A DNA stretch of 60,381 nt from a virus (lineage: Duplodnaviria; Caudoviricetes): positions 1 to 60,381 of the IMG/VR virus record IMGVR_UViG_3300027419_000035. One strand, written 5' to 3'. The first letter of the stretch is position 1. Each line of letters opens with the position of its first letter. Positions 517 through 31,871 of this stretch are shown here, in pieces. The translations under genes and the position numbers were made by a program. A model generated the notes under the pieces. That model did not search any database. It had not been told where the DNA came from and saw nothing but the letters and a program-made list of their open reading frames with translations.

Positions 517-2460
517 ATGAATATTGATAATAGAATAACTCTTACAAAGACACTTTCAAACCCGGATGAGTTTAATCATAATATTACTCAGTTCAGGAAC
601 GATGTTAGTTCATTAATACTGCAGGAGCTTAACCTTGAAGATTTTATATATAAATACTCTACTATTTATAGTGAAGACTATATAGAACAATTAAGGTTTA
701 CTCTTTTAGAAATGCGAGAAGAATTAATTGCACAAAAGATGTTGTGTGAGAATCTTGAATACTCTACTATTTTCCAGACAAGTTTTAATCAATCTGGTTT
801 ATTCTTACAGTATGATCCAAAATATTATAAAGATCCGAAAACAAACTATACATTTACAAGAGACAGTCTGCTTTCAGTCAACCTAAAGGCCGCAGCATTA
901 CAGTTGCCCATCCTTGATAAGGATACTGCAACGATAAAAAATATTGCCTTCAGCAATATACCTGTTGATAAGTCTTTGGTTTCTTCCACGAAACAGAGTG
1001 TATATCTCTATCAGAATACACCAGACGCATGTAATCTTGATGTTTTAGTAAGATTAAACAGCATTACGGAAATTAATAATATTACATTTAATATCAATAG
1101 TGAGTTTCCTGTTACATTATCAAAAATAGGATATTATAATAATGGTGTATATACTGAATTGAGTAATGTTAATCTGGAGAATCTGACAGGTTATGTAAGT
1201 ATGCCACTTTATTTGAACAATGTAAACATCGAAGCAGATGCGGTATTGCTCAAATTTATCCTTCCCTACTGTAAGGCGACGAACAGGCTATATAATGTTT
1301 CAACTATACAAGAGTTATTACAAAAACTTATAGGTACATCTGAATATATTGAACTTGATAATTACACTTCGGGTGAATACTCAAGTTATGTTTTTCATTT
1401 TGGCATTGATGATATAGAACTAAGCAAAATCACATATCAGACAGAAGGCATCTTTATCGGACAACCTAAAAAGTTCAAAGAACCGGCTCATTTCAAGATC
1501 AGAGTTGACCAACAGTCATCGAATGTTGGCATTGAATATTACCTGTTTATAACAGATTATGACTCCAAGGGAAATAAACTTTTTGGTTCAACAAAACTAA
1601 TTCCGATACTTATTGATGGCCAGACAAGTGTCGTTCGGGAAGTAATTAAATTTGTCAATAACAAAGCTATCTTGAATTTTTATCCTGACGATATAGAAAA
1701 TGTAAGTCTTTACTGTGATGACGTTGTTGTTGCGGAATTCAATTTGTCTGGCAAAACAATTACTCTGACCGGCACGAACGATTCAAGTATATATACCGTA
1801 AGTTATATTCCTTTCCACCTTACCAAAGACTATGTAACGCCACTTGTAAATCCACAGACAACTGTTGAATATGAACATGAGTTTATATATGATAATAATA
1901 ATGAATGCAAAGTTCTGATTACTACAGACGAAGGAGGGGTTAAAACAATTGCAGAAACTACACCGAATAATGAAGATGGTATTTCATATATCAAAATGGT
2001 CCTTCCATATGCTTATGATCCGACAAAAGCAATTACTATAAAACGTTATCTGAATAATAACAAGAATTTGCTTGATGATGCCGCACCCGTATTCTATATG
2101 TCCGGGGAAAATCAGAATGTATTTATTGTCGGAAGAATTCTGTATTTGCCGTTTAATTCCAGTTTATATCCAAAACTTACAACGTCTCTGTATATAGTAA
2201 AAGGAACATTGTTAAACATTTCAGTTACAGACGATGTATTGCTTTATTACGGCAAAGATAATTCTCTGATAATAAACTATGATGCTTTTGCTGCGTTATA
2301 TGGATCGACTTACAGTTATACACTTATTAATCCTGTTATAATCGCGCGCCTGCAGGATCTTACAAATACAGAAACATTTCTTAATCTCAAAAAATTCTAT
2401 CTGTATTCAAACACATTTAATGATTACATCCAAAATCCTAAAATATTAATAGAAACATGA
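517..2460 (+). CDS. Putative virion structural (baseplate/tail) protein
   Basis: 647 aa; helical N-terminus then beta-rich; lies in a tightly coupled structural operon. Confidence 0.5.
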   Translation: MNIDNRITLTKTLSNPDEFNHNITQFRNDVSSLILQELNLEDFIYKYSTIYSEDYIEQLRFTLLEMREELIAQKMLCENLEYSTIFQTSFNQSGLFLQYDPKYYKDPKTNYTFTRDSLLSVNLKAAALQLPILDKDTATIKNIAFSNIPVDKSLVSSTKQSVYLYQNTPDACNLDVLVRLNSITEINNITFNINSEFPVTLSKIGYYNNGVYTELSNVNLENLTGYVSMPLYLNNVNIEADAVLLKFILPYCKATNRLYNVSTIQELLQKLIGTSEYIELDNYTSGEYSSYVFHFGIDDIELSKITYQTEGIFIGQPKKFKEPAHFKIRVDQQSSNVGIEYYLFITDYDSKGNKLFGSTKLIPILIDGQTSVVREVIKFVNNKAILNFYPDDIENVSLYCDDVVVAEFNLSGKTITLTGTNDSSIYTVSYIPFHLTKDYVTPLVNPQTTVEYEHEFIYDNNNECKVLITTDEGGVKTIAETTPNNEDGISYIKMVLPYAYDPTKAITIKRYLNNNKNLLDDAAPVFYMSGENQNVFIVGRILYLPFNSSLYPKLTTSLYIVKGTLLNISVTDDVLLYYGKDNSLIINYDAFAALYGSTYSYTLINPVIIARLQDLTNTETFLNLKKFYLYSNTFNDYIQNPKILIET

Positions 2461-4937
2461 GTATAATTACAGATTCCGGCAAAGACAGTCAGTATATTAA
2501 TGATGTAAAATTTATCGATAAGAAAAAACAACTACAGACCGTACAAGAAAAGCAACTCGCAGATATAAAGAATAAAATGCTTTCTTCGTCTATCAGAGAT
2601 GACAAGTTTTTTACACCTGTTTATTTTACAACTTCCGATTTTGTTATTGGCGAAGAACTTGATGATGCTTTTACACAATGTGCAGAAGACCTTTCTGTCA
2701 TTAATAATGCAATAGATACTCTTACATTGAGTGTAAATAGTTCTAAGGACATTGTAAAAAACAATCATACCAAATTACAGTTAAATATAAACAGACTTTC
2801 TTCGTTCATAGACACTGTAGCGATGTATAATGGAACCGCCTTTTCCAATGTGGTTCCAATAACAGAATCTTTTGGCAGTGATAATGATTTGGTTAATAAC
2901 TCAATAAGCCTGCTTGCTGATACATTTGAACAGAAGTTAACCCTGTCCCCTACATTGATAGAGGTTGATAATCTGTCTAATACCACTATAGTTGTAAATG
3001 ATACGTCAAACGGTGCATTTACAAATGAATCACCAGCGGATAATATTATCGATGGTTCTGATGTCACATATGCCGAATACTATCAGACGGCATCTGCCGG
3101 CAAATTGCAGTTGAACTTTAATATTATTCTTGAAACACCAAAGATTATTAATTATCTGTCTATTGTCCCCAATAATTTCAATACCCAAAACTGGATACAT
3201 GTTGAAGATATACTTACATCTGTCGACGGATCTTCTTTTACATCAATTTATGATAGTAATACCTTTTACCGGAAGTTTCTGTTTAAGGAAGAAGATAATG
3301 CTACCATTGTAGAATTAAATCCGAATAAAAACAAATCTATAAATAAATTTATCTTTGATTTTCAACCTATCCGTGCAAAATACATTCAGATTATACTTTC
3401 ACAGGAACAATTGCATCCGGAAACCGACAACCTGCGTATAGGTATAAACGATATAAGTATCGGAAGAATAAAATATAAGACTTCTGGAAGTGTTGTAATA
3501 AAAAAGCTATGTAATCCTGCCGATGTCAAAACACTTGCTATACACACAGATCAGAGGTCGCTTGTTGATTCAAGAATATTGATCGTTACATATCAGATAT
3601 CATTTGACCAAAATACCTGGTATGATATACAACCCGTATCTTCGAGCGGAACTAAACCTGAAGTACTTTATTTTAACTCATCATGGCAATCTGGTTCGGT
3701 TGATTTGTCGGCGGTTGATAGTGATTATATTTATATCAAGGTTTCGATGTCAAAGAATACGAGTGTTTCGGATATAAATGATTTGTTATCTTCATATTCT
3801 GTAAGTACAAATGAATATTTTACTTTTCCGGTTCTGTCTCCATATAAACTAACACTAAATAAGACTGCCGTTAAAAGCAGTATTAATCTCTTTGCCCTAC
3901 CATATATGGCTGCCGGGAAAACTGGTCTTAATGATAAGGTTCTTGGTACCGTTGAGGCAAATGTATTTTATTATGAATTTGCCGTACCATTTAACTTGAA
4001 CGATATGGCTGAGATTTTTATCGGACAGAGATCTATCCAGAAATACAGTACCATTGAAAACTTGTTACTTACTGAGGATGTGGGATATTACTACGAAAAC
4101 AATATTATACATATTGCTTTCTATACGGGTCATATTGAACGCAATAATGTAAATGATCCCATCCTTATGTCAATCAACAATGATACTGCTATAATATCAA
4201 AAAACAATTCTTATGCGGGTCAACTTGTTACACTAAGAATCAATGCAGAAATTGTTTCAAGTAAAAGTAGATGTATAACATTATCCTATGCAACTGATGG
4301 TATCAAAGAAAACATTTCTGTCAGACGTCTGAAATTTGATACTGACGGAAAAATATTACAGACTGTAAATATAGATTTGCTTCCTGCTGGGATGAATCAG
4401 TTAAGACTTTCGGCTAAACCTATTTCAACAGAAATAGTAGAAATACTCGGAAGGCATCAAATAAAATTCACAAACGGAGTCAATGAATTTATTGATGCTG
4501 ATGATGATAGTTTCTCAATTGATTATGACAATAGAGTCCTTTATCTGAAAACGGTTTCTACTGCAAAACTTGGTGTCAGTTATCTTAAAGAAGAGGCATT
4601 TGAATTGAATTTAGATGACTTTGATATTGCCTCTGATTTTCAGACTGCAACCATAAGAGAGTGGGCGTTTGATCCCGATTCATATTACGAATTTAAATAT
4701 AATATATCTGTTACTGTTCCTAACAGTTGCTATACTGTCTCTGCAGATAATAATTCAATACAGATAACTGATATAGAAATAATGAAATCCCTACTTGGCA
4801 TCAGTACGTTTACAGATTCAAATCTAAAGATCAAAATAAGTTATTTATATAAAGAAAATCTTAAGGAAGTTCTTGGAGAAATTGCCGATTATATTTCTCC
4901 GGTTCTTAATAAACTTACAATATTATATAGTATATAA
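2457..4937 (+). CDS. Putative baseplate/tail protein with galactose-binding/discoidin-like domain
   Basis: 826 aa; ATGA overlap with upstream gene; 'NIIDGSDVTY', 'FQPIRAKYIQIILSQ', 'GINDISI' are discoidin-like motifs. Confidence 0.55.
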   Translation: MSIITDSGKDSQYINDVKFIDKKKQLQTVQEKQLADIKNKMLSSSIRDDKFFTPVYFTTSDFVIGEELDDAFTQCAEDLSVINNAIDTLTLSVNSSKDIVKNNHTKLQLNINRLSSFIDTVAMYNGTAFSNVVPITESFGSDNDLVNNSISLLADTFEQKLTLSPTLIEVDNLSNTTIVVNDTSNGAFTNESPADNIIDGSDVTYAEYYQTASAGKLQLNFNIILETPKIINYLSIVPNNFNTQNWIHVEDILTSVDGSSFTSIYDSNTFYRKFLFKEEDNATIVELNPNKNKSINKFIFDFQPIRAKYIQIILSQEQLHPETDNLRIGINDISIGRIKYKTSGSVVIKKLCNPADVKTLAIHTDQRSLVDSRILIVTYQISFDQNTWYDIQPVSSSGTKPEVLYFNSSWQSGSVDLSAVDSDYIYIKVSMSKNTSVSDINDLLSSYSVSTNEYFTFPVLSPYKLTLNKTAVKSSINLFALPYMAAGKTGLNDKVLGTVEANVFYYEFAVPFNLNDMAEIFIGQRSIQKYSTIENLLLTEDVGYYYENNIIHIAFYTGHIERNNVNDPILMSINNDTAIISKNNSYAGQLVTLRINAEIVSSKSRCITLSYATDGIKENISVRRLKFDTDGKILQTVNIDLLPAGMNQLRLSAKPISTEIVEILGRHQIKFTNGVNEFIDADDDSFSIDYDNRVLYLKTVSTAKLGVSYLKEEAFELNLDDFDIASDFQTATIREWAFDPDSYYEFKYNISVTVPNSCYTVSADNNSIQITDIEIMKSLLGISTFTDSNLKIKISYLYKENLKEVLGEIADYISPVLNKLTILYSI

Positions 4938-4938
4938 A

Positions 4939-6792
4939 ATGAAATTTACAGACATAAGAGAGCAGGTAATAAAACAATTCATAATAAAAGAATTACTTGA
5001 TGAAAGTATTTATCCATCACTAGAACTGGTGTGTGCAATGCTTATCAGGGATTATCAGAATAGTAATATTGGACAATGTCTTCTATTAAATAAACATCTG
5101 ATTGTTAATGGTGAAACTGCTTCCGCCAGAAAAATAAATGAAATTATGAAACTTATGGATATAGATATCCAAACATTATACAAATTTATCGAGTATCTTG
5201 AGAAATTATATACGGATTCGCAATCCGCAGCCCTGCAAAAGATAAATGCACTCAATCGGCTTTGTGCAGAACTTGAATCATACGCAAAAGCGATCCTTCT
5301 TTCTAATACTGATGTCTCCGGAACAACTGAAATTATCAGTGAATCGTTTTATAATACAGGCAAAATAGATCTATTAAATACGACAGCAAATGTTGATGTA
5401 TCAAAAAATGAAATTACGGCAAGAAAAGAGAACATAAAAACATATACCAATTTTGCCTCATATGTAATAAATCCTATTATTACAACATCAACAAGTAATA
5501 TAAAAATAATTCAGGATAAGGACATTACAAATGCATTTGATAATTCTCTAGCAACATATTTTATTTATAAAGCATATACTCCGGACCAAGGGATATTTGA
5601 AATATCAATAAAACTTCCATTAAAAAAGGTCATTGAATTATCCCAGTTATCAATGGATCTTTGTGGTTCAAAATATGATGTTAGTCTTGTAATGCGTGTT
5701 AATGGTATTTATAACAATATTGCCAACTATGCAACTTATACAGACCAGTGTGTTATCAATTTCGATCCTGTCGAAACTGATTATATTATAATAAAATTAA
5801 GATCTGCATCCGGTACAAAGTGTAATGCTGGTATTGAATATATTTTTAATCTAAATAATATCCGTTTTTCAAAATTGAATTTCAGTAGTGAGTCCATATT
5901 TACTACTTCCGAAATTAATACAGACAGTGATTTTTCTATTATTGGTCTCTATACCGAAGAAACAATTCCAAATACTGGAAATATTTTATATACAGTACAT
6001 TGGAAAACAGAAAATAATGGCATTGCAAGTTGGCATACAAGTTCAATTTTTCCATATAATCACAGTGGAATCGATCTTACTAAATATTTGAACATTGACG
6101 AATCATCAGAATCGATCATATCAATAAAAACGATTGATTTCACATTGGTGCATCCGTATATTTGCAAAGCAAATATATCTACAACAGCTACTTTAGATTC
6201 TGATCAATATAATAATCTCCGTTATGTTCAACCCAAACTGCTCAGAAATCTTGGTGGTTTTGATATCTTCAATAGTGACACTGGCATAATTACTACTGTC
6301 TTATATGTTGTCAGCGATTTTACTGTAGATTTTTCACTGATTCCAGGAATAATAACCGGGGGTAGTTATAAAAACTATAAGATTACAAACAAACTTTCTT
6401 TAAGTCCCGGTTTCTATACATTTTCATTTAACAGTAGCAACCTAATAAGCACATACAAAACTTACCTAGATTCAATTGTAGGTGATAATTTTAAATATGG
6501 TTCGAATGTAGCTTCTTATGTCATTCCACAGGACTTTATTAACCGCATTGAAGATAATAATTATAATGTCCATACCATATTGCCAAACAAAGACGGCGGA
6601 TATAATCTTGTTATAAAAATGTTGAATGGCAATGTAACTTCCGACACGACATGGGATAAAGAAAGTATGCTCTTTGTTTATGCCAGTTTCAGTCCGAATC
6701 AGATCGGCAAGGCGGTAAAACTTGTGGCAAAAATAACTTCGTCTGGAACAGAGACGCCAAAATTAAAACAATTTAAAATCAAATTGAGTTAA
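4939..6792 (+). CDS. Putative baseplate/tail protein, similar in architecture to the two upstream genes
   Basis: ATG at 4939 just after the upstream stop; 'NAFDNS', 'FDPVETDYIIIKL', C-terminal 'TPKLKQFKIK'. Confidence 0.55.
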   Translation: MKFTDIREQVIKQFIIKELLDESIYPSLELVCAMLIRDYQNSNIGQCLLLNKHLIVNGETASARKINEIMKLMDIDIQTLYKFIEYLEKLYTDSQSAALQKINALNRLCAELESYAKAILLSNTDVSGTTEIISESFYNTGKIDLLNTTANVDVSKNEITARKENIKTYTNFASYVINPIITTSTSNIKIIQDKDITNAFDNSLATYFIYKAYTPDQGIFEISIKLPLKKVIELSQLSMDLCGSKYDVSLVMRVNGIYNNIANYATYTDQCVINFDPVETDYIIIKLRSASGTKCNAGIEYIFNLNNIRFSKLNFSSESIFTTSEINTDSDFSIIGLYTEETIPNTGNILYTVHWKTENNGIASWHTSSIFPYNHSGIDLTKYLNIDESSESIISIKTIDFTLVHPYICKANISTTATLDSDQYNNLRYVQPKLLRNLGGFDIFNSDTGIITTVLYVVSDFTVDFSLIPGIITGGSYKNYKITNKLSLSPGFYTFSFNSSNLISTYKTYLDSIVGDNFKYGSNVASYVIPQDFINRIEDNNYNVHTILPNKDGGYNLVIKMLNGNVTSDTTWDKESMLFVYASFSPNQIGKAVKLVAKITSSGTETPKLKQFKIKLS

Positions 6793-6795
6793 AAT

Positions 6796-7398
6796 ATGAA
6801 TTTGCAATTCGATCAATCAACGATGCCAATCTCAGTAGCAAAGGGAGCTTCGTTTAAATCAGAAGATATCAATGCCTTTACCAAGGCGACTGCCGGCGAT
6901 TTTGCAACACTGTCTTCGCTATTGAACGATAATGTGTTCAAAATATTAAATACGCTGCCTGCCTTTTATGATCCTGAAAATAGTCATCTTGATGGTAAGG
7001 GTTTTTATGTTGATTCAGATTCGACTATTGTCAAGGATAACGGTTTATTTTATTTAAATGACACGCAGAATGCCAGCAACAGCAGGCCACTTACTGTATA
7101 TGAGACTTTTATTTTGATCATGCAGATACTTGCCAACATAGAAAATGCACAACGTGAAGGAGTTACCGTTGGTTCATATGCAAATAAGGTGGCCGTCAGT
7201 TCTACGTCTTCGCTAACATATGTTTGGCCATATGCAGACAGAATTTATCAGTCTAATCTTTTTGAGATTTCCGGAGGCAATATTGTTCCGGCAACTCTTA
7301 CTTATTCTTTAAATCCAACAACCAAGATATTAACCGTTTCCTCGGCATCTCCTAAAAATATCTGGGGTTATATCTGGCATCCAGTATATTCATTTTAA
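6796..7398 (+). CDS. Putative structural protein
   Basis: 200 aa ORF inside the structural operon. Confidence 0.45.
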   Translation: MNLQFDQSTMPISVAKGASFKSEDINAFTKATAGDFATLSSLLNDNVFKILNTLPAFYDPENSHLDGKGFYVDSDSTIVKDNGLFYLNDTQNASNSRPLTVYETFILIMQILANIENAQREGVTVGSYANKVAVSSTSSLTYVWPYADRIYQSNLFEISGGNIVPATLTYSLNPTTKILTVSSASPKNIWGYIWHPVYSF

Positions 7399-7407
7399 GG
7401 TAACAGC

Positions 7408-10400
7408 ATGAGCAACAGTACATTTCAGTTTAAATCCACATCAGACAGTCCTGCTCGATTTGAATTTGTTGATATAATTAAAAACACTCCGCGTAATCCG
7501 CAGGATTATGCAGACCTGCAAAGTATTATACGGTTCAGGTTAGCCTCGATGGTTTCTGAATTATTTGGCAACTGTCGTATATCTCAGGTCACAGGTCCGT
7601 TTACAGTAGAGACCGTTGAAACAGTAAAATATTTTAAAGCAGATGGCATATGGTACATTGATGGTTATCGTATTGAGCTTAATGATGTGATTGCATCAAA
7701 TAGTGTTTCCAATACCAACGACTATTGTATCTGGTTCGGTTTTGAATTTGCAGATGTCAGTACGGATATATATAACGGCGGCGTTATGCACGATACATTT
7801 ACCGGCAGTCTGATTGAAACATCGAAACGGGTTATTATGGACGTCGGTGTAGCGGTTAGCGCATCATCTGATGTTGTTCCGTCCGAACTGGATGAATATG
7901 CTTATAAATATTATATTGCAGATGCACACTGGGATGCAGAAAACGTAACCTGGACATTTGACGAATCGTCCTCTTTTAAATTAATAAATCAGAAATATTC
8001 CGATGCACTTGATAATATTAGTCGTGCAGTCAGCAAACTTGCCTTAGATGATAAAACAGTAGAGATTGGACGTCTTGTTACGGACAATACAACTGCAAAG
8101 GCAAAATTGCTTTTCGAACAAGTTACCAATGAAAAATTAATGTTTGGTTTTACAAATGATTCCGGCAAATTGCTCGGAGCATTGGAAATTGTCAAAGAAA
8201 ATGACGAGTGGAATCCTGTTCTTTGGATGAAGGAAGACACAACCGGTTATCCATTGTCATATATGACACCGGATGGTTTTTCCGTATTTGATAATAAAGG
8301 CCAGGTAGGAAGGTTTGATAATAAGAGTATAGCTTTTGGAAACAACACAACCGGATTTTCCGCAAATAATAAAGAGATTAAATATACTACATCTGGCAAA
8401 AAAGGTTTTCATGTTAAACGCGAAGTAAATGAGTCTTCCCAAAAACTGCTCGATGTTACACCCGATGAAGGTAATATAGTTGCAACACCCGATGATCCTA
8501 TATATGAAACAGGATCTTCCTTTGCAACTTATAATACCGGTAATCCTGTATCTGCAGATACAACTGCCATTTATACTTTCGTTTTTACCGAGATACCCAA
8601 TGACAGACATTTCCAGGTTAATCACAGACTTGCCCTTGCCGATAACTGCCTTACAAGCGGGTTTGTAAAAGTAGATGTACACGTTAAAAGTGGTACTGAT
8701 ACGTATACATTTGTTGATACACAGAAATACCTGTTGAAACCTGGCGATGTTATTGTTGATGATCCGTTTCTTATTGCACTGCCGAGAAAGTTCGATATAG
8801 ACAAAGATGCAAACAATGCAACAGTGAAACTTACTTACTCACTTGAAACATTTACCGCTGATTATAATATTGCAGCTGAAGTTGGTTTTAAACACGACGA
8901 GAATATTAGTTACGAATTGGTTGCTGATATGTCGGTTGTAACTGAAGTTGACGTCCTCAGAATCAATGACCATGTTTTGTATGTTGATGACAACGGTAAA
9001 CTCAGAATGAAAGAATTGTCGAATCTTACAAATCCGGCTGCTGAAGTTGCTCTGTTAAAAGACAGTACTAAAGGATATTCTGAGGGAATACGTACAGTCG
9101 GAGGTGCAACGTCTGTTATTGTCGATTACAATTCTACTGACATACCCGAACCTATATATGAGGATGAGAACTTTGTATTTCCTGTTGTGGACAAAATTGC
9201 CGCCGCTACAGGAGCGGGTCTTATGAGCAAGGAAGCTTATAATACACTGCTTTCGTTAGAAGGTTCGTTCAGTTCGCTTGCCGTTGCAAACAGGTATCCG
9301 AGAAATACTGTTTTTGTTTCCAACCAATGGAGAAATGATTTGGACTATGATGCAGTTACAAATAATTTTCCTTATTTCAGTGACATCCAGTCGGCTATCA
9401 ACTGGATACAAAATCCTGTTGCCAATAATGGTGGTGGAAGCGATTCCGCAAGTGGCACTGCCACAGATAGTAGTGGCGCTGTAATTATTCTATATCCAGG
9501 TGAGTATGGTTCAGGTACACAGGAAATAAAACTTGTTCCATATTCATACTCACTAAACAAACCGATTGCTATTGTCGCTCCATGGCGCGGTACTACAAAA
9601 ATTACTGCTACTATTAAGGATGGAGAACAGGCGGCGACCGCCTTTATAGATGTTCCTGTCGAACCTACCGGTGGTGTAAGAGCGTTAATATCCGGCAATT
9701 CAGGATCCAATATAGTGTTTGGTCCTAATGCTACGATTACTGCCGGCATCAATAATACAAATGGGTTGATTGCTATTAATTCTGCTGATACAGTTCATTT
9801 CTATGGATCAATTTCACATCTTGGAACTGCTACCGGGCAAAACGGAATTATACAGATCGGATATAATGGAACCGGAAACGTTAATGTACATTTTCATAAT
9901 ATAATTACACATACAGGCGGATGTTTGTTTAATATAAGTAGTGGCAATGTTTATCTTCATAGTCAGGTTGTATCTACTGAAACTTCTACCAATTACCAAA
10001 GCAATGCACTCTTTTATATTAATAACAATGTTGCAAAAGCAGTTAATCTTTATATAAATGAAGATATCATAATGAGTAATCTGCAGTTTATATACTCAAC
10101 ATCAACACAGTCATCTGCCAACGTGAATATCAAAGTTAAGGGAGACGTCACAGCAAACTTTTCTGCCGACACTGCATTTGTAAATCTGATAAAAACTAAA
10201 CTTGAATTCAGCGGACATCTGAAAAATACAAATACGATTTATACCGATAACAAATCTGTCTTTGCCGTTGGAGATCTTTCAAGACTTATAACAAGAAACA
10301 CCCTTCTCGAAGTTGCTTATGGTAGTATAATTTCATTAAGCGGGAATACTCCTGGTATGCTCGTGACAAATTCGACACTTATAACAAAGAACGATGCCAT

Positions 10401-10545
10401 AGGTACTTATTCAATCAAGAATAGCGGTACCAACTCGCTGTTAGCTGCAACATATTCGCAGGGGAGTCACCCTGTAAGTGCCGGCAGCGCTACATTGGTT
10501 GGTTTGTTTACAGAAAATCCTTCATTACGTGTATTTGTATTTTAA
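7408..10545 (+). CDS. Tail spike / receptor-binding protein with C-terminal parallel beta-helix
   Basis: 1045 aa; 'FSDIQSAINW...VIILYPGEY' beta-helix cap motif followed by about 340 aa of N/G/I/S-rich strands; 'AATGAGLMSKE' fibre motif. Confidence 0.65.
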   Translation: MSNSTFQFKSTSDSPARFEFVDIIKNTPRNPQDYADLQSIIRFRLASMVSELFGNCRISQVTGPFTVETVETVKYFKADGIWYIDGYRIELNDVIASNSVSNTNDYCIWFGFEFADVSTDIYNGGVMHDTFTGSLIETSKRVIMDVGVAVSASSDVVPSELDEYAYKYYIADAHWDAENVTWTFDESSSFKLINQKYSDALDNISRAVSKLALDDKTVEIGRLVTDNTTAKAKLLFEQVTNEKLMFGFTNDSGKLLGALEIVKENDEWNPVLWMKEDTTGYPLSYMTPDGFSVFDNKGQVGRFDNKSIAFGNNTTGFSANNKEIKYTTSGKKGFHVKREVNESSQKLLDVTPDEGNIVATPDDPIYETGSSFATYNTGNPVSADTTAIYTFVFTEIPNDRHFQVNHRLALADNCLTSGFVKVDVHVKSGTDTYTFVDTQKYLLKPGDVIVDDPFLIALPRKFDIDKDANNATVKLTYSLETFTADYNIAAEVGFKHDENISYELVADMSVVTEVDVLRINDHVLYVDDNGKLRMKELSNLTNPAAEVALLKDSTKGYSEGIRTVGGATSVIVDYNSTDIPEPIYEDENFVFPVVDKIAAATGAGLMSKEAYNTLLSLEGSFSSLAVANRYPRNTVFVSNQWRNDLDYDAVTNNFPYFSDIQSAINWIQNPVANNGGGSDSASGTATDSSGAVIILYPGEYGSGTQEIKLVPYSYSLNKPIAIVAPWRGTTKITATIKDGEQAATAFIDVPVEPTGGVRALISGNSGSNIVFGPNATITAGINNTNGLIAINSADTVHFYGSISHLGTATGQNGIIQIGYNGTGNVNVHFHNIITHTGGCLFNISSGNVYLHSQVVSTETSTNYQSNALFYINNNVAKAVNLYINEDIIMSNLQFIYSTSTQSSANVNIKVKGDVTANFSADTAFVNLIKTKLEFSGHLKNTNTIYTDNKSVFAVGDLSRLITRNTLLEVAYGSIISLSGNTPGMLVTNSTLITKNDAIGTYSIKNSGTNSLLAATYSQGSHPVSAGSATLVGLFTENPSLRVFVF

Positions 10546-10547
10546 TT

Positions 10548-10928
10548 ATGAATAAAGGTGATATTCTTATTGTCTCTAAAGATAATATTGAATTAAGTGA
10601 TATATATATTATTTATGACAGGACACTTGCGCTCACCTTTTCCATCTTTGGTATTTCTATAGTTAATACGGAAAATCTTGTAAAGGAAAATGCAAAGATT
10701 CTTACGTTGGCTAGAAATATAAATTATCCCCGTCGCAAAATGCTTGGAAATTTTATTGCCGGGTTAATTACGGGAGATGTTCAGACTACTATTAAGGAAA
10801 GAATGAACATTCTTAAATACATCCTCTGGATGTACAAAAAAATATTAAATATTAATTTAATAGACACACCAATACCAGTTAGTATATCTAGTCTTTTAAA
10901 ATCAAGACAATTATTTCATATCAAATAA
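10548..10928 (+). CDS. Hypothetical protein (weak resemblance to a degenerate permuted papain-like fold)
   Basis: 126 aa; starts 'NKGDILIV'; no Cys, so no papain-type nucleophile. Confidence 0.35.
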   Translation: MNKGDILIVSKDNIELSDIYIIYDRTLALTFSIFGISIVNTENLVKENAKILTLARNINYPRRKMLGNFIAGLITGDVQTTIKERMNILKYILWMYKKILNINLIDTPIPVSISSLLKSRQLFHIK

Positions 10929-10957
10929 AATTACCTACAACTACATAAGAGACTATT

Positions 10958-11389
10958 ATGGTCGACCAATTCAAAACCCAGATTGACGATATAAAGAAAC
11001 GTACGTCCGATATTAAAAAGATGTTTGAGAAATATGATTTCAATGGCGATTTATTCGCAAAGATTTTTGATAGGATTCCGGTCTTTATGTTTTATAAAGA
11101 CTGTGAAAATAGAATTATAAAAGTCAATCGGTTTTTCTGTGATGTTTTGAATGTAGAAAAAGAAGATGTAGAAGGAAAGCATATGAGTGAATTCACTGAC
11201 GATAAAATAGTGGTTGCCAAGTATGCACAAAATGATATTGATATAATTGAATCTGGCCAACCAAAGACAGGGATCATTGAGCCAATGTATGATATGGATA
11301 GATGGTTTCGTACTGATAAGTTCCCTGTCTTTGATAAGAAAGGACAGGTCATTGGGGTTCTGGGAATGTCTGTGGAGGTGGTAAAATAA
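10958..11389 (+). CDS. Standalone PAS/PAC domain protein
   Basis: 'IPVFMFYKDCENRIIKVNRFFCDVLNVEKEDVEGK' and 'RWFRTDKFPVFDKKGQVIGVLG' are PAS_4/PAC signatures; no output domain. Confidence 0.85.
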   Translation: MVDQFKTQIDDIKKRTSDIKKMFEKYDFNGDLFAKIFDRIPVFMFYKDCENRIIKVNRFFCDVLNVEKEDVEGKHMSEFTDDKIVVAKYAQNDIDIIESGQPKTGIIEPMYDMDRWFRTDKFPVFDKKGQVIGVLGMSVEVVK

Positions 11390-11706
11390 TGTCCGATGAC
11401 CTGTCTTATCAGAAGATGCTCTTCGAAAATATTATCAACAATCTTGAAGCTGTCAATGCGTCTCTTGAAAATGTAATAGAGAAGACACATCAGCTTGAAC
11501 TCGATATTCAAAAGGTAGACCAGAAGGAAGCACTGCATCAATCGGGTTGTCCTTTAAATAAAGTTTATATCGAAGACATGATTAATACAGCCTTGATGAA
11601 AAAACAGGTTGAACGACCGTCAAAGATTAGTAAAGCTATTATGTGGGTAGTAACTATTACAAATCTGCTTATTCTATCTGCACTCGCAATCACACAATTA
11701 TTTTAA
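11389..11706 (+). CDS. Holin-like protein (coiled coil plus C-terminal TM helix)
   Basis: TAATG coupling to the PAS gene; single TM 'AIMWVVTITNLLILSALAI'; upstream of endolysin. Confidence 0.55.
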   Translation: MSDDLSYQKMLFENIINNLEAVNASLENVIEKTHQLELDIQKVDQKEALHQSGCPLNKVYIEDMINTALMKKQVERPSKISKAIMWVVTITNLLILSALAITQLF

Positions 11707-11717
11707 ACGGAGAAAAA

Positions 11718-12209
11718 ATGAACTGGAAAATAACAGGTTGGTTAAAAAAGAACCAGACTGTTGCCACTGTCGGACTTATTGTTGCCTGCGCAATTGCGTT
11801 TTTATGGGTTACACCAACAATAAATAATATCAATAAAGTTGTAACCGAAACATCAACTATAGCCGCCAATGTACTCGTCGATTCAACAGGAGAAGGTCTT
11901 CAAAAAGTTATTGATCTACAGGATAAAATCGCAGATACCAAAACAGATGGGATATGGATGCTATATATGAATTGGCTTACACTTTCTTTTATCGGAGTTA
12001 CAATGACAGGCATGTTGGCCTGGTGGTTGCAACATATATTTACTAATCTTTCATTTACAAAAAAGAAATTCACAGATGAAGATGGAATTCTGAATAAACA
12101 GGACAGATATAATTCAATGTCAGTTCTTGCTGCTTCGCTCATCAGTGCAGCATTGATTGTTTTAATGTCTGCTTATGTAGTTTTTGCTATTCTGAGTCTA
12201 CAGCAATGA
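11718..12209 (+). CDS. Putative holin (3 TM helices)
   Basis: ATG 11718 preceded by GGAG; three hydrophobic segments; ATGA overlap with endolysin. Confidence 0.6.
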   Translation: MNWKITGWLKKNQTVATVGLIVACAIAFLWVTPTINNINKVVTETSTIAANVLVDSTGEGLQKVIDLQDKIADTKTDGIWMLYMNWLTLSFIGVTMTGMLAWWLQHIFTNLSFTKKKFTDEDGILNKQDRYNSMSVLAASLISAALIVLMSAYVVFAILSLQQ

Positions 12210-12706
12210 AACGTTTATTGTTGTTAATTTTATTATCGGCGTCTCTTTGCTTTGGACAGTCTCGTATTACAAATACAGGTATTGAAGTAATTAAACACTA
12301 CGAATCATTCAGGGCAAAAAGTTACCTCTGCCCTTCTTCTGTATGGACTATCGGCTTTGGGAGTACTGAAGGTATTAGACCTAATATGACAATAACACTT
12401 GACAAAGCTGTCATTTTATTGAAGAAGGACATTACAAGATTTGAACAACACGTGAGCGGAAAGACGACAAGGATATTAAAATGGAATGAGTTTGATGCAC
12501 TTGTGTCGTTCTCTTTTAATGTGGGTTATCAGATAAAAGGCAGTCTACGTACTGCAGTTAATAATGGCAATACAAAATTGGCGGTTTTCTACATGAAAAA
12601 ATACAATCGCGGGCGTGCAAAAGGTGTGTTAACAGTTTTACCTGGTTTGGTAAAGCGAAGAAAAACTGAAGGAATTTTATATGAAAGCGGTAAACTTGTT
12701 TTTTAA
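12206..12706 (+). CDS. Endolysin, GH24 phage lysozyme with N-terminal signal/SAR sequence
   Basis: E-x8-C-x5-T triad 'ESFRAKSYLCPSSVWTIGFGST'; 'FDALVSFSFNVG'; 'LPGLVKRR'; hydrophobic leader MKRLLLLILLSASLCFG. Confidence 0.92.
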   Translation: MKRLLLLILLSASLCFGQSRITNTGIEVIKHYESFRAKSYLCPSSVWTIGFGSTEGIRPNMTITLDKAVILLKKDITRFEQHVSGKTTRILKWNEFDALVSFSFNVGYQIKGSLRTAVNNGNTKLAVFYMKKYNRGRAKGVLTVLPGLVKRRKTEGILYESGKLVF

Positions 12707-13478
12707 TAAAGCACTAGAGTGGTTCTGGACTAATAGAAAATATACTATTCCCATTACGGGGGTTCTGATAGCTATTCTGTATGTGTATTTAAAATTTAAT
12801 AATTACAACAACCAGATTGCTGATCTTAATAATGAACTGATTAAACAGAAGGGTTTTACACAAATTGCCGAAACACAATATGAAACTCAGGTTCAGATAG
12901 TTAACGATTTGAAGATTAAGAATAAAGATTTGAATAAAAGATTGGACGAGACAGATAGAACCGCACGACATTGGGCATCCTTATGTATAGTTTATAAAGC
13001 CAAACTTAATGCAATCAGCACTCAGCCGGTTGGCAAGGATACTGTTTATATAGCCGGCGAACCGGTCATTGTGGATTCAACAGACAGGATGTTTGAAGAG
13101 ACTTTTAATAATGAAGTATATATAGCGGGATACTTTCAGACTGTATCTCCTTTTGATTTATATATCAGAAGTCTACAGTTGAAATTTAATATTGAAGTAT
13201 TGTTGAGCGAAAGCGAAAACGGCAACTGGTTTTATGACGTTGATACACACTCAAAATATCTAAGTGTAACAAATATGGACATAAAGTTGGCGCCCAAAAA
13301 GAACAGTTGGTACATGGTCTATGGTATAGATAGTAAGCTGAGAAATGTAACTATATGTGGTGTCGGTATAAATGCCGGAATTGGCTATGGGGATAATATG
13401 GTCACAGCAGGTTATTCTGTCATTCAACAGACTACACCTATATGGTCAGTGGGGTTTTTAAGAAGAATTGCGTTTTAA
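12681..13478 (+). CDS. Spanin-like lysis accessory protein
   Basis: N-terminal TM, coiled coil, then beta-strand-rich C-terminus ending in Phe; directly after endolysin. Confidence 0.5.
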   Translation: MKAVNLFFNKALEWFWTNRKYTIPITGVLIAILYVYLKFNNYNNQIADLNNELIKQKGFTQIAETQYETQVQIVNDLKIKNKDLNKRLDETDRTARHWASLCIVYKAKLNAISTQPVGKDTVYIAGEPVIVDSTDRMFEETFNNEVYIAGYFQTVSPFDLYIRSLQLKFNIEVLLSESENGNWFYDVDTHSKYLSVTNMDIKLAPKKNSWYMVYGIDSKLRNVTICGVGINAGIGYGDNMVTAGYSVIQQTTPIWSVGFLRRIAF

Positions 13479-13489
13479 GGAAGAAAGTC

Positions 13490-14131
13490 ATGTCTGATTT
13501 AGAAAAAAAGATAGAGGAGGTTCTTGCTTCCTATGTGCCGAAGTTACAATGGAAACAGTTAGATACTGTCCGGACTACTGCAGTTAATAAGGCGCTTGCA
13601 GATATCGAGAATATAAAAGCACAAATTGTTAATCTTACAAAACCTGAAGTAGATATGAGTTCCTATGTACCAAAATTACAATGGAAACAATTAGATACTA
13701 TTAGAGCGGCTCAATATAGACAGATTGAATTGAAAATAGAAGAATTAGAAACAAGGATCAATAATATAGGATCATGGGTTTCCAAAACAATTCGTATAGG
13801 GCATACATTCACAATCTATGGTGAAATTAAAGTCCCTTCAGGAAATACTGATTATATATGTCCTTTCTTCCTTGACCTTCCAACAGGACAAACTGCAAAA
13901 CTTGTAACTTGCAGATACCTGATTAACTCAGGTGTTTCGGTTGTGTTTAAATTACAAGTAAACGATTCAGACATTGCTGGATTTACAGGTTTATCGGCAA
14001 CCATGGTTGCCGAAGCTAATCCGGCTGATGTTACATTGGTGGACGGAGATAAAATCGCATTAGTAGTAACCGCTGTGTCGGGTGCACCAGAAAACTTATC
14101 AGTAACAGTCTTTATAGACTACACTGTGTAA
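13490..14131 (+). CDS. Hypothetical virion-type protein with internal duplication
   Basis: SYVPKLQWKQLDT occurs twice; beta-sandwich-like C-terminus; last gene of the + strand block. Confidence 0.5.
   Translation: MSDLEKKIEEVLASYVPKLQWKQLDTVRTTAVNKALADIENIKAQIVNLTKPEVDMSSYVPKLQWKQLDTIRAAQYRQIELKIEELETRINNIGSWVSKTIRIGHTFTIYGEIKVPSGNTDYICPFFLDLPTGQTAKLVTCRYLINSGVSVVFKLQVNDSDIAGFTGLSATMVAEANPADVTLVDGDKIALVVTAVSGAPENLSVTVFIDYTV
13529..13699 (+). repeat. 39-bp intragenic direct repeat (13529-13567 and 13661-13699)
   Basis: 35/39 identical; all four differences are synonymous third-position G/A changes. Confidence 0.9.
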
Positions 14132-14136
14132 TTGAT

Positions 14137-14946
14137 TTATGATTCCTCTTTGTTTGGTAAGGCGAATTTTATAGATGGTTTAATTAATCTGTCTGTTATT
14201 TCGTATATGCCAAGATAACCAACCTTTACAAGTTCATTTGTATATTCTTCGATTTGAGATATACAATATTTACGTGATTTGCTTGGAGAAAATCCAAAGA
14301 TCTGGCGTGCTAAATATTCAATGGGAATTTCGATAGGACGGTTATGTTTATAGAATCTTTTTGACAATACCCGGTACAATTTACGAGCACCGGGTTTTTT
14401 TATTTTAAGATAGAGGTCAAAATCAAGTGGTTTTATATGGCCAGACAAAATACTGTCAGCTATTTCTTTGCCCCAGGTAATTTCAACATTTTTAACAGTA
14501 TGATAACTGTCTATAATGTGAAAACCTGCATGTCCGTATGTCTGTGTCTGTTTGTTATACCAGATGTCAGTTTCAAATATCATTCCTGCCAGACGCCGCA
14601 GTGAGTCTTTTATTCTAGCAGAGTTTTTACCGGCTTTCTTAAGTTTTAATCTTCGTACAATTTGTGTGACACTTTGAATGGTTAATACGCGTGAGTTACT
14701 GAAGTAGGATTCTGAACCGAACGAGATAAGAGCAAGAAGCAGGTCCTCGTCCTGTGGTAGAAGTGTGTTTGTTTTTTCATCCTGGATATAATAGATACGT
14801 AAATATCCTGATATTGGATGATGATTGTTTTTGTTATATATGGATATTCTGTATTCTCGATTACTAGTTGTTTCTTCAGCTTTTGTCTCTTTGCCGAATG
14901 CAACGAGAGGCCAATCAATTATATTGACAAGATCGTATGTATTCAA
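14137..14946 (-). CDS. repA: Plasmid-type replication initiator (RepA/TrfA-like winged helix)
   Basis: 'DWPLVAF', 'LPQDEDLLLALI', 'IKDSLRRLAG', 'GFHIIDSY', 'LDFDLYLKIKKPGARKLYRVL', 'ELVKVGYL'; iteron array upstream. Confidence 0.78.
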   Translation of the reverse strand: MNTYDLVNIIDWPLVAFGKETKAEETTSNREYRISIYNKNNHHPISGYLRIYYIQDEKTNTLLPQDEDLLLALISFGSESYFSNSRVLTIQSVTQIVRRLKLKKAGKNSARIKDSLRRLAGMIFETDIWYNKQTQTYGHAGFHIIDSYHTVKNVEITWGKEIADSILSGHIKPLDFDLYLKIKKPGARKLYRVLSKRFYKHNRPIEIPIEYLARQIFGFSPSKSRKYCISQIEEYTNELVKVGYLGIYEITDRLIKPSIKFALPNKEES

Positions 14947-20919: not shown

Positions 20920-21269
20920 TGTACAGTCTCCTTGTTTATGTGAGCTTCTTTTCTCCCTCCTTTTAAATAAAGCAGAAAGAAACCTCGAAGGATTTCAGAG
21001 GCCTTTTTGTTCACTTCACTTCCGGCCAGATCGGCTTCCAGGGGCAGTGGTGATTTATATAAAAAATCAGCCGGATCATCACTCTTCTTAAGCATATCAC
21101 GAAATACTATAATGGGTTTGGCAAACAAATATATAGTCTGAGAACCGGGGTCTTCATAGATCCCGAACTCAGAAAATAAATTGCTACCCATAAACAGACC
21201 ATTGAGATATTGTAAAAGGGCTTTTTGTCGTTCGCCTAATTCTGTTTTTTGTTTAACTTTCTTTCTCAT
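20916..21269 (-). CDS. Hypothetical protein
   Basis: 117 aa, coupled on both sides. Confidence 0.5.
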   Translation of the reverse strand: MRKKVKQKTELGERQKALLQYLNGLFMGSNLFSEFGIYEDPGSQTIYLFAKPIIVFRDMLKKSDDPADFLYKSPLPLEADLAGSEVNKKASEILRGFFLLYLKGGRKEAHINKETVQ

Positions 21270-22168
21270 TTGTAATAATTAACCGCCATGTTATTATATA
21301 AAAGCTGAACAGCATCTGAATAAAATTCATTGATTGCTTTTCTTGTTGCCTTGTTGATTTTTCCATTTATAGGACCATTATATAAACATGCATACCGTAG
21401 TTTTTTCTGCATGGTTACAGCAACATTTTTCTGTATACTGTTTATATCAACAAGTACTCCGGGTGAATCTTTTATATCTTTATGACCCTTTAGCCAGGGT
21501 ATCAAGTTGGATCTTACAGAAGACTGAGTCTTGATGGCTTTATAAGGATCCAACTTGAACTCAAGACATAGAATTGTAAGTATTTTTTCTAATGACTTAA
21601 TTATTTTACTTGTAGGTGGTGCACTGTTATTGTCTACTTTATATTGAATTACAATACCGATACTCCTGGTGTTTACTCCCGGGGTATGATATGTTATATT
21701 TTCAAAAGCTGAAATGCGTTCAACAATATCCGAAGCATTTACAAATAAATGATATGAAGAACCCGGCAATGGTTTACCAGGTGTAATATTATTCTCTTTA
21801 CTGGTGTCTAAATCAAAGAGACTCGCTGCATCCCAACCAACGCCTCCATTGGTGGCTGCGATTACGATTGTATCGATAACCGACAAATGCCGTTTATGCC
21901 ATGGTTTAATACCGTCCTTTTCACAGTTATTATAATAATCATACATTTGAGTTGTATCTATTATGGTCCATGGAAACAGCCTTGACTGTTTGATGATCGT
22001 ATGCCTGATGGCTTCTATCTGCTGTTCTGTTGGGTTATGCAGCAGATGGCCTTTTCGTTTTAATGTATTCCGCGGCAACGGATGCAATAGATTATATGTC
22101 TTTGCACTAAAACCCAATGCTTGCGCTATATGCAGCAAGGTTATCCATAATTTTTGGATAATGTTCAT
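21266..22168 (-). CDS. Amidase_2/PGRP-fold protein with PG-binding domain, probably catalytically inactive
   Basis: AGGAGG before ATG 22168; 'SYHLFV', 'YHTPGVNTRSIGI'; C-terminal 'NGPINGKINKATRKAINEF'; Zn ligands substituted. Confidence 0.75.
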   Translation of the reverse strand: MNIIQKLWITLLHIAQALGFSAKTYNLLHPLPRNTLKRKGHLLHNPTEQQIEAIRHTIIKQSRLFPWTIIDTTQMYDYYNNCEKDGIKPWHKRHLSVIDTIVIAATNGGVGWDAASLFDLDTSKENNITPGKPLPGSSYHLFVNASDIVERISAFENITYHTPGVNTRSIGIVIQYKVDNNSAPPTSKIIKSLEKILTILCLEFKLDPYKAIKTQSSVRSNLIPWLKGHKDIKDSPGVLVDINSIQKNVAVTMQKKLRYACLYNGPINGKINKATRKAINEFYSDAVQLLYNNMAVNYYK

Positions 22169-22625
22169 TGATGATCCTCCTAATGTTGGTTTCATCTGTC
22201 TTTTCGTTATATGGAATACGTATTATGTATATGTATTCTAAATCTGCCAATTTATTTTTGGCCCCATCATTATATTGTTGTCTTTCAAATTTGTATTGTC
22301 CACTATTTCCTTCGCCGTGATAAAATGTATTACGGTCAAAATGCTGGATACCATCATATTCAAAACAGAGACGTAGTTTGTCGATATAGAAATCCATATA
22401 ATAAGTTCCAATTGGAACCTGTTCCTCTATTTTATGCTGTGGATATATAATAGCCAGTACTTCCCGCATTGCCATTTCTCCTTTGCTTCTGTTAAGTCTT
22501 TTAAATTTTTTCAATACTTCATTGATATTCTCTTCGGTAGTATTAAGTTTTTCAGCAATCTGAGAAATTTCGAGCTTTTCCAGCAGGTACATCTTTTTTA
22601 TAAACTTTATTGTTTCTTGCTTCAT
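22107..22625 (-). CDS. HTH plus DUF559/Vsr-like endonuclease
   Basis: 'ISQIAEKLN' HTH; 'SKGE', 'YYMDFY', 'FEYDGIQH', 'IRIPY'. Confidence 0.75.
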   Translation of the reverse strand: MKQETIKFIKKMYLLEKLEISQIAEKLNTTEENINEVLKKFKRLNRSKGEMAMREVLAIIYPQHKIEEQVPIGTYYMDFYIDKLRLCFEYDGIQHFDRNTFYHGEGNSGQYKFERQQYNDGAKNKLADLEYIYIIRIPYNEKTDETNIRRIINEHYPKIMDNLAAYSASIGF

Positions 22626-31487: not shown

Positions 31488-31871
31488 CTATTTCTCTCCT
31501 ATAAACTTGTCGATTACAGGTTGAGCCTCTTTTGTCCACGCGAACAACAGTCCGCAAGTAGGACAATAGTTTAAATAACTTGCCATATTTTTCTGACTCC
31601 ATATATTTAAACTATGAATAATTACCTTAGTATAATATTCGTTATTTCTCATCCATTTTGCAACAACACTGCCATAATCTTCTTGGTCAAAATCTATCTG
31701 TTTGCCATTTAAATCATGGTCAAGCATAACAAGATCAAAATGATTATTTTTTAATTGTTCGATAGCTTCATATGAATGTTCTACTATAGTAAGATCATAT
31801 CTATCCATGTTTATCTGAAAGGCAGCAATTCTTTCTTTACTGTCCTCAAGTATTAATATCTTCTTTCTCAT
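31488..31871 (-). CDS. Receiver-fold protein (cyclic-phosphate-processing receiver type)
   Basis: 'ILILED...R', 'MLDHDL', 'IIHSLN'. Confidence 0.75.
   Translation of the reverse strand: MRKKILILEDSKERIAAFQINMDRYDLTIVEHSYEAIEQLKNNHFDLVMLDHDLNGKQIDFDQEDYGSVVAKWMRNNEYYTKVIIHSLNIWSQKNMASYLNYCPTCGLLFAWTKEAQPVIDKFIGEK

Follow-up and report, generated by a model that had tools for sequence, protein, structure and literature searches.

We analyzed a 60,381-bp stretch of DNA (the window) from a virus of the class Caudoviricetes (Duplodnaviria), IMG/VR record IMGVR_UViG_3300027419_000035. The record has a G+C content of approximately 34% and is estimated to be 36% complete. On its plus strand, a block of large structural and tail-fibre-type genes (517 to 10545) is followed by a set of lysis genes that is headed by a gene for a stand-alone PAS protein. 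The second gene of the set encodes a small coiled-coil membrane protein, which we designate ccTM (for coiled coil and transmembrane). This study investigates the properties of these two adjoining genes and their relationship to the lysis genes that follow them. Coordinates refer to the window unless another locus is named.

The PAS gene (10958 to 11389, plus strand) encodes a protein of 143 amino acids. The open reading frame (ORF) matched Pfam PAS_4 (PF08448; E value, 3.3e-11; 43.8 bits against a cut-off of 23.1) and the NCBIfam model TIGR00229, sensory_box (E value, 9.3e-08; 32.3 bits against a cut-off of 22.9). The AlphaFold2 model, built with five homologues (mean predicted local distance difference test [pLDDT] score, 81.4), consists of a helix at residues 2 to 39 followed by a canonical five-stranded PAS core, with strands at residues 43 to 48, 52 to 56, 103 to 109, 116 to 125 and 131 to 141 and helices between them, and it therefore has the PAS fold. 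A Foldseek search with this model gave a probability of 1.00 to the solved NifL, CitA PASc, VqmA and LOV PAS structures at approximately 20% identity, and a sequence search of the PDB with the PAS profile returned no matches. Pfam and hydropathy analysis revealed no kinase, DNA-binding or other output domain, no second domain and no transmembrane (TM) segment. A sequence-only reading of this DNA had described a PAS-only protein with a short N-terminal coiled coil and no kinase or output domain, and the PAS_4 match, the model and the absence of a second domain bear this out. The overlap that it had noted between the PAS gene and a coiled-coil/TM gene likewise is present: the final base of the PAS stop codon (TAA, 11387 to 11389) is also the first base of the ATG at which the next ORF begins (11389), forming the sequence TAATG. 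An antisense ORF that spans this junction (11092 to 11541; 149 amino acids) was rejected as a real gene, since it is the sense ORFs that show conservation and domain matches.

The gene that begins at this ATG (11389 to 11706, plus strand) encodes ccTM, a protein of 105 amino acids. Hydropathy analysis revealed a long N-terminal helix with heptad-like spacing of hydrophobic residues and a sole hydrophobic segment at the C terminus (residues 80 to 105), preceded by residues rich in lysine and arginine. The AlphaFold2 model is all-helical (pLDDT, 74.8), with helices at residues 2 to 53, 58 to 75 and 79 to 104 and a loop at residues 54 to 57 that contains a Cys-Pro pair. The soluble parts of both proteins should lie in the cytoplasm: ccTM has a K/R-rich stretch before its only TM segment (positive-inside rule) and no signal peptide, and the PAS protein has neither a signal peptide nor a TM segment. 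Judged from these features, ccTM should be tail anchored, with its coiled coil on the cytoplasmic side.

Three further genes follow in the same direction, and frames overlap or nearly abut all along the cassette. The first (11718 to 12209, plus strand) encodes a 163-amino-acid protein with two or three TM segments by hydropathy, which is the holin candidate. Its ATG lies 7 nt downstream of a GGAG ribosome-binding site, with an alternative GTG start at 11643. Two of its hydrophobic segments are strong (residues 12 to 36 and 131 to 163); between them lies a weaker one, which in the homologue from another locus (L004, described below) does score as TM. By hydropathy and gene order it has the architecture of a holin (a small membrane protein with at least one TM segment, beside an endolysin), a likeness of architecture only. 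Neither this protein (11643/11718 to 12209) nor its counterparts at the four further loci described below matched a holin family in Pfam, PHROGs or NCBIfam, and an Atlas search with it was uninformative (best score, 0.84). Thus, of the 3-TM holin described in the sequence-only reading, two strong segments beside an endolysin can be confirmed, and the third is plausible rather than firm. The endolysin that was expected to follow is indeed present: the next gene (12206 to 12706, plus strand) encodes a GH24 phage lysozyme (PF00959; E value, 2.1e-28; phrog_7 endolysin; E value, 2.4e-30) whose start overlaps the preceding stop (ATGA) and whose residues 1 to 22 form a signal-like hydrophobic stretch. 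The fifth gene, in spanin position (12681 to 13478, plus strand), encodes a protein of 265 amino acids with a TM segment at its N terminus (residues 21 to 39), a coiled-coil stretch and a beta-rich C-terminal part ending in RRIAF; it matched no family in Pfam, PHROGs or NCBIfam. A scan of positions 10300 to 14400 for promoters and terminators gave counts equal to shuffle expectation. The G+C content of the cassette genes (0.347 to 0.362) matches that of the window (0.342), which argues against a recent foreign insertion.

Relatives of the PAS-ccTM pair were sought among viral contigs. Scans with single proteins as queries (the PAS protein, the 265-amino-acid protein, the endolysin, a 639-amino-acid structural protein of the window and P0107, a PAS relative described below) returned none. 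When 2.9 million viral contigs were scanned for patterns derived from the family alignments, four further loci emerged (L002, L003, L004 and L070). At all five viral loci with context, a PAS gene lies directly upstream of a ccTM gene. The PAS homologues are 40 to 47% identical. The gaps between the two genes are -1, -11, +6 and +32 nt, with an overlapping or abutting start in L070. A small TM protein is encoded downstream of the pair at all five loci, and an endolysin identified by family follows at three, namely, GH24 in the window and L004 and Amidase_3 in L003. The sequence-only reading had named the lack of linkage between PAS homologues and lysis genes as what would refute it. The survey, once run, revealed that the linkage holds. 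With PAS beside ccTM again in four other viral contigs, chance does not account for the arrangement: the pair is a conserved unit, and its linkage to lysis cassettes is real.

The neighbourhoods of the four loci differ. L003, a 62-kb record that is 90% complete, has tail-fibre-like genes and a gene for a 166-amino-acid coiled-coil protein upstream; the pair (PAS, 153 amino acids; ccTM, 127 amino acids; 11-nt overlap) is followed by two small TM proteins, an Amidase_3 endolysin (E value, 1.9e-20) and a 211-amino-acid N-terminally anchored protein. In L004, a LamG-type protein and a 191-amino-acid protein precede a REC-PAS fusion of 267 amino acids (PF00072; E value, 1.8e-11) and a ccTM of 112 amino acids, after which come a 150-amino-acid TM protein that is homologous to that of the window (35% identity over 96 amino acids; E value, 1e-15), a GH24 lysozyme and a 273-amino-acid N-terminally anchored protein. 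L070 carries a 193-amino-acid homologue of the L004 protein and a separate REC gene (162 amino acids; PF00072; E value, 4.7e-12) that abuts PAS; its pair (PAS, 171 amino acids; ccTM, 148 amino acids) is followed by a 135-amino-acid TM protein, a 182-amino-acid soluble protein without a family and a 169-amino-acid TM protein. In L002, the pair (PAS, 145 amino acids; ccTM, 103 amino acids) is followed by a 107-amino-acid TM protein and then by convergent genes, including one for a ClpB-like ATPase. Just upstream of the L002 PAS gene, on the opposite strand, lies an array of 15 tRNA genes (1176 to 3077 of that locus), in which genes with the same anticodon are adjacent (Trp, two; Leu-taa, two; Ala, two; Val, two; Glu, two; and Asp, three) and Leu-tag and Leu-aag are single.

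The TM protein that follows ccTM is homologous only between the window and L004 and is unrelated in L002 and L003. Estimated genome sizes also differ greatly (60 kb is 36% of one genome, and 62 kb is 90% of another). A constant pair with an exchangeable holin-type protein and endolysin, in genomes of different sizes, is the pattern expected of an accessory module for lysis cassettes generally. Two further observations concern the exchangeable genes. Both GH24 endolysins (12206 to 12706 in the window and 5148 to 5684 in L004) have signal-like N termini, of the Sec or signal-arrest-release (SAR) export type, and the L003 Amidase_3 (9376 to 9948) has none, so the same pair heads cassettes with different endolysin export logic. 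The product of the gene that follows the endolysin position has an N-terminal TM segment in every case (12681 to 13478 in the window, 9867 to 10502 in L003, 5697 to 6518 in L004 and 7881 to 8390 in L070), with a beta-rich C-terminal part in three of the four. No similarity was detected among the four proteins (by BLASTP for those of the window, L004 and L003) or to spanin families; they may represent a noncanonical component for outer membrane disruption.

We then examined the family to which the PAS protein belongs. An exhaustive HMMER search with the protein returned 17,570 proteins at an E value of ≤0.001. The best 150 of these matches were mostly long proteins with several matched PAS stretches; among them, P0107 (143 amino acids; 42% identical end to end) and P0130 (267 amino acids; 47% identical) stood out. 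A PAS profile search limited to proteins of 78 to 468 amino acids at an E value of ≤1e-10 recovered 24 proteins of 98 to 434 amino acids, comprising the window protein, 19 short single-PAS proteins (98 to 171 amino acids; 38 to 48% identical), the REC-PAS protein P0130 and three multi-PAS proteins. The family numbers 22 short or REC-fused homologues. In a quick tree, to which each of 61 cellular loci contributed its best PAS domain, the short proteins formed one group (23 rows; SH-aLRT, 99). In a careful tree, which excluded the long-branch row L005 and two fragments (P0172 and P0169), the short PAS clade (21 rows; support, 100/100; stem, 0.79) stood apart from the 61 cellular loci. The next-larger supported set in the quick tree adds 11 cellular rows, mostly from Bacteroidota, a weak hint that this lineage was the donor of the phage PAS. 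A search of BFVD revealed other short uncharacterized phage PAS proteins, the best being a 169-amino-acid protein of an uncultured Caudovirales phage (24% identity; TM-score, 0.71), and PAS proteins of Cellulophaga phages phi18:3 and phi19:1 also are listed there. A word-index search with the PAS protein alone returned only itself.

The phage PAS proteins are up to 43% identical to their cellular matches. The cellular relatives lie in ORFs of 242 to 1781 amino acids (stop to stop), the exceptions being L062, which is cut at a contig end, and L067, which is partial and near a contig end. Cellular multi-PAS sensor histidine kinases, with PAS_4/PAS_9 "S-box" repeats, resemble the phage proteins in the signature residues of the subfamily, and a core of K47, D48, N51, N57, D93, E108, T119, K121, P123, G133 and G136 is common to the phage clade and the cellular domains. 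However, these kinases embed the domain in long proteins, whereas the phage clade is single domain and has its own near-invariant substitutions: C61 (A in the cellular domains), A90 (W), N92 (D), R118 (Q) and F122 (I). Cys61 (11138 to 11140) is found in at least 90% of 22 clade sequences, and the cellular relatives mostly have Ala there.

The ccTM proteins are diverse in sequence. Those of the window, L002, L003, L004 and L070 are only 23 to 29% identical; the family shares a length class, the long heptad-like N-terminal helix, an invariant Pro before the TM segment (Pro77 in the window) and the C-terminal TM segment itself. Four of the five sequences also contain the loop motif C-P-x-(N/D)-K (residues 54 to 58 of the window ccTM, where it reads C-P-x-N-K; 11548 to 11562). 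Both partners thus have a conserved Cys, in the ccTM loop and at position 61 of PAS, and a thiol-based switch, in keeping with the redox gating suggested by the sequence-only reading, is conceivable. A profile built from four copies of ccTM matched only ORFs adjoining PAS when all ORFs of 67 loci and the window were searched, and the L070 ccTM, which was outside the profile-building set, was matched at an E value of 5.3e-05 among 410 ORFs. The profile had no match within 5 kb of PAS at the 61 cellular loci. It also had none in the 4 plus 401 Bacteroidota genomes searched, a result that says little, as no positive control genome exists. A word-index search with the profile returned only the four already-known sequences, a search of BFVD with the ccTM model returned nothing below an E value of 8, and a metagenome scan found two distant PAS loci, both without ccTM.

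Inspection of the five loci revealed a second type of signalling domain. REC, the response-regulator receiver and canonical input domain of two-component systems (PF00072; cut-off, 30.2 bits), occurs at two of them, fused to PAS in L004 (44.6 bits) and as the separate gene abutting PAS in L070 (46.5 bits). The two domains align in register at an acidic pair (DD/ED), a central Asp, a Thr/Ser and a Lys-Pro, which presumably correspond to the CheY positions. The only receiver-type match in the window is a cREC_REC gene at 31488 to 31871, far from PAS. HATPase_c, the ATPase domain of histidine kinases, occurred in none of the five viral records, four of which are fragments. Where REC is present, a host kinase would therefore supply the signal, and PAS would relay it. 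In the REC-bearing phages, the input is probably phosphorylation, to judge from domain content, and PAS would be a transducer or output rather than only a ligand sensor, acting most plausibly on its constant neighbour, ccTM. In versions without REC, the window's among them, the input may be received by the PAS domain directly or by Cys61. REC-driven signalling is an element that the sequence-only reading did not contain.

Taken together, we propose with moderate confidence that PAS and ccTM form a signalling pair at the cytoplasmic face of the membrane, promoter proximal in the lysis cassette, which tunes the triggering of the holin-type protein encoded downstream. Domain identities, the logic of the membrane topology, the close and conserved adjacency of the two genes, their tie to endolysin cassettes and the fusion or adjacency of REC are observed; the physical binding of the pair, the direction of control and the nature of its signal are what we infer. 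As suggested by the TAATG overlap, PAS and ccTM would be translated together. The N-terminal helix of PAS, its beta-sheet or both would associate with the cytoplasmic coiled coil of ccTM, and the state of PAS (a bound metabolite, a thiol/redox change at Cys61 or, in REC phages, phosphorylation by a host kinase) would alter that association. This in turn would affect how well ccTM can restrain, or favour, the opening of holes by the TM protein encoded next to it, and the physiology of the infected cell would thereby influence when lysis occurs. A wider claim is more tentative: the REC/PAS module may act posttranslationally, via ccTM as an adaptor, on the holin, so that host two-component or metabolic signalling decides the time of burst by a mechanism unrelated to antiholins of the RI/RIII or dual-start type. 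A PAS-based lysis timer working through the coiled coil of a holin had been suggested from the sequence. The tie of the pair to lysis cassettes (ccTM beside PAS at five of five loci, an endolysin at three of five) supports that suggestion in part, as regards a functional pair tied to lysis, and ccTM has the coiled coil and TM segment that had made its gene look holin-like. The identification of ccTM itself as a holin is not supported: neither it nor its counterparts at the other four loci matched a holin family, and it matched no antiholin or XhlA family.

Several points weigh against the proposal. Pfam, PHROGs and NCBIfam placed neither PAS nor ccTM in a described antiholin or holin family (no PHROG family at an E value of ≤0.01). 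The PAS protein has no established ligand or cofactor signature, its LOV-type matches being at the level of the fold, and its core residues are common to cellular multi-PAS kinases. The pair in L002 is not trailed by an endolysin, and the 182-amino-acid protein that holds the enzyme position in L070 had no match in Pfam, PHROGs, NCBIfam or the PDB. Context is known for 5 of the 23 clade members, and L004 and L070 are not independent witnesses, because they share homologous flanking genes. Finally, all five cassettes end blocks of late or structural genes, so position alone could reflect shared late expression.

We consider it unlikely that ccTM is instead a structural holin partner, as XhlA of PBSX is with XhlB, and that PAS is a chaperone or assembly factor with no part in sensing. 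A coiled coil with a C-terminal TM segment, encoded directly before a TM protein and an endolysin, is a build that we take to resemble that of XhlA in general. When ccTM was submitted to an Atlas feature search, the nearest clusters were unnamed viral clusters of 106 to 111 amino acids (0.91 to 0.92), and the nearest one with a name was "hemolysin XhlA family", 43% of whose members carry PF10779; its score of 0.89 is below the tool's own bar and a lead only. In the accessible part of the PBSX report, XhlA is a membrane protein that acts with the holin XhlB, and all three genes are needed (PMC5589764). However, none of the four ccTM sequences scanned matched XhlA (PF10779) at E values up to 10. 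Moreover, PAS, together with a REC domain with aligned phospho-acceptor positions at two of five loci, is a signalling module, which is hard to fit to a mere chaperone.

It also is quite unlikely that the pair is a membrane-tethered signalling unit for some other late function (superinfection sensing or exclusion, a host membrane process or counter-defence) that is merely co-located with lysis genes. Such a unit would fit L002, where the pair and one TM protein lie between the tRNA array and the convergent genes, and it would fit the tail-fibre-like or other late genes upstream in the window, L003 and L004, as well as the lack of homology to known lysis regulators. Those upstream neighbours vary, however, whereas what lies downstream recurs: a small TM protein at every locus and, at three, an endolysin from one of two enzyme families, in frames that overlap or nearly abut. 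The alternative offered by the sequence-only reading, a split PAS-TM sensor in which an ancestral membrane-anchored PAS protein was divided into the two ORFs and ccTM is only the anchor, is very unlikely, although coupling is tight (overlaps of 1 and 11 nt) and the models suggest that the long helices with which both proteins start may be able to pair. No PAS-TM fusion occurs among the 24 family proteins (a search that covered 78 to 468 amino acids), in which the only fusion is REC-PAS. In cells, the nearest relatives of the PAS protein are repeated soluble domains within multi-PAS proteins, and ccTM, at the loci and in the genomes searched, never occurred apart from PAS and never in cellular DNA. 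The order of PAS and then TM with a C-terminal anchor is unlike that of usual PAS sensors, and an anchor alone yields no output.

The remainder of the window provides the genomic setting. Two public DNA runs contain this stretch, both labelled as groundwater metagenomes, and no RNA run is listed for it. One of the two may be the source. The second, from another study, holds five small identical pieces within 10548 to 13478, one of which crosses the PAS/ccTM junction (11294 to 11484); the parts that are uncovered there are uninformative. The window has no close relative among GenBank phages; in the 12 best records listed for its polymerase, identity does not exceed 34%. Against GenBank phages, blastn of positions 10500 to 14200 gave no match, nor did tblastn with the 639-amino-acid structural protein or the multi-TM protein. 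With the PAS protein, tblastn gave none at an E value of ≤1e-3 and, at an E value of ≤10, only two chance-level matches (E value, 0.6) in an Ndd gene. The last gene of the plus-strand block (13442 to 14131; 229 amino acids) contains a near-exact internal repeat, SYVPKLQWKQLDT, in two copies approximately 43 residues apart; a beta-rich C-terminal part follows the repeats, and the protein has a weak match to a tail-fibre PHROG (E value, 0.0043).

After the lysis genes comes a long minus-strand block for replication and nucleotide metabolism, including a DnaE-like polymerase, a primase-helicase, a RecA/UvsX-like recombinase and ribonucleotide reductase, among others. The polymerase is split into two ORFs (27657 to 30038 and 32122 to 33465, both minus strand), which correspond to positions 442 to 1078 and 42 to 449 of phrog_405. 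They lie approximately 2 kb apart, with several small genes between them, including the cREC_REC receiver-type gene (31488 to 31871, minus strand; PF20274; E value, 1.4e-12). This cyclic-phosphate-processing receiver domain co-occurs with an RlaP-type nucleotidyltransferase (58273 to 59058, minus strand; PF10127; E value, 5.9e-21), and both family names point to RNA repair. Cell wall-active domains also are found outside the lysis cassette, namely, Amidase_2 (21266 to 22195, minus strand; E value, 5.9e-10) and a lytic transglycosylase-like DPBB_1 domain (47526 to 47954, minus strand; E value, 1e-21). A gene like that for replication initiator protein A (14137 to 14946, minus strand; PF10134; E value, 6.1e-12) and one for a ParA-like partition ATPase (55035 to 55796, plus strand; AAA_31; E value, 7.2e-45) are hints of an episomal, phage-plasmid-like lifestyle. 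If the phage does live in this way, conditional control of lysis would be of greater use to it.

The timing of lysis largely sets phage fitness. To our knowledge, phages have few ways of adjusting lysis to conditions: the lysis inhibition of T-even phages, dual-start antiholins, and switches at the level of transcription, VqmA(Phage) being an example. If PAS and ccTM do tune the holin-type protein, the PAS/REC module would let host physiology or kinase signalling gate lysis after the late genes have been expressed. The module of two or three genes is a small, defined system that could be cloned with any holin-endolysin pair, and, if its signal is identified, it might be used as a lysis switch under the control of a ligand or of phosphorylation. 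The proposal would also assign a likely role to a family of short PAS proteins with at least 23 members and to membrane proteins of uncultured phages that form an orphan family.

The accessible literature, with subscription journals outside its scope, yielded no description of a phage lysis cassette that contains a protein with a PAS or REC domain, and VqmA(Phage) was the only phage PAS receptor tied to lysis that we found in it. The nearest functional analogue is in T4, where, according to the accessible parts of two reports, the periplasmic RI and the cytoplasmic RIII regulate the holin T and RIII stabilizes the holin-antiholin complex (PMC8385771 and PMC2962797). RI and RIII are small phage proteins apart from the holin that make lysis timing responsive to a signal, and PAS likewise would act on the cytoplasmic side. 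They have no sequence or family relation to PAS or ccTM, which belong to no PHROG family, and T4 senses superinfection through the periplasmic RI. Here, unlike in T4, the sensor parts are a canonical PAS domain with REC added at two of five loci, and the immediate partner is a predicted tail-anchored coiled-coil protein, a putative link to the holin. In cassette architecture, the nearest known system is XhlA-XhlB-XlyA of PBSX from Bacillus subtilis, in which, in the part of the report available, the gene for XhlA, a small membrane protein, immediately precedes those for the holin and the endolysin (PMC5589764). PBSX differs from the cassettes described here in having no PAS or REC partner and in host type, and none of the four ccTM sequences scanned matched PF10779.

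VqmA combines PAS with a DNA-binding domain and is a transcription factor that acts on the lysogeny-lysis switch. VqmA(Phage) of vibriophage VP882, which is named in the accessible portion of one report (PMC8284805), is a phage-encoded PAS-domain receptor tied to the lysis decision. The solved PAS domains of Vibrio cholerae VqmA held ranks 6 to 10 among the Foldseek matches to our PAS model. Unlike VqmA, however, the window PAS has no DNA-binding domain, belongs to the lysis cassette and has a membrane protein as its partner; if it exerts control, this would thus be posttranslational. LytSR is a DNA-binding regulator that acts on transcription. In bacteria, LytSR-lrgAB ties a response-regulator receiver domain to a holin-like system (cid/lrg is named in the available part of PMC6997555), and the accessible text on the lysis cassette of Yersinia entomophaga describes a PhoB-like regulator, which links a receiver domain to a holin/endolysin cassette at the level of transcription (PMC10101115). 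Unlike in LytSR and the PhoB-like regulators, the REC domains of L004 and L070 have no DNA-binding output and are fused to, or abut, a PAS domain beside a membrane protein.

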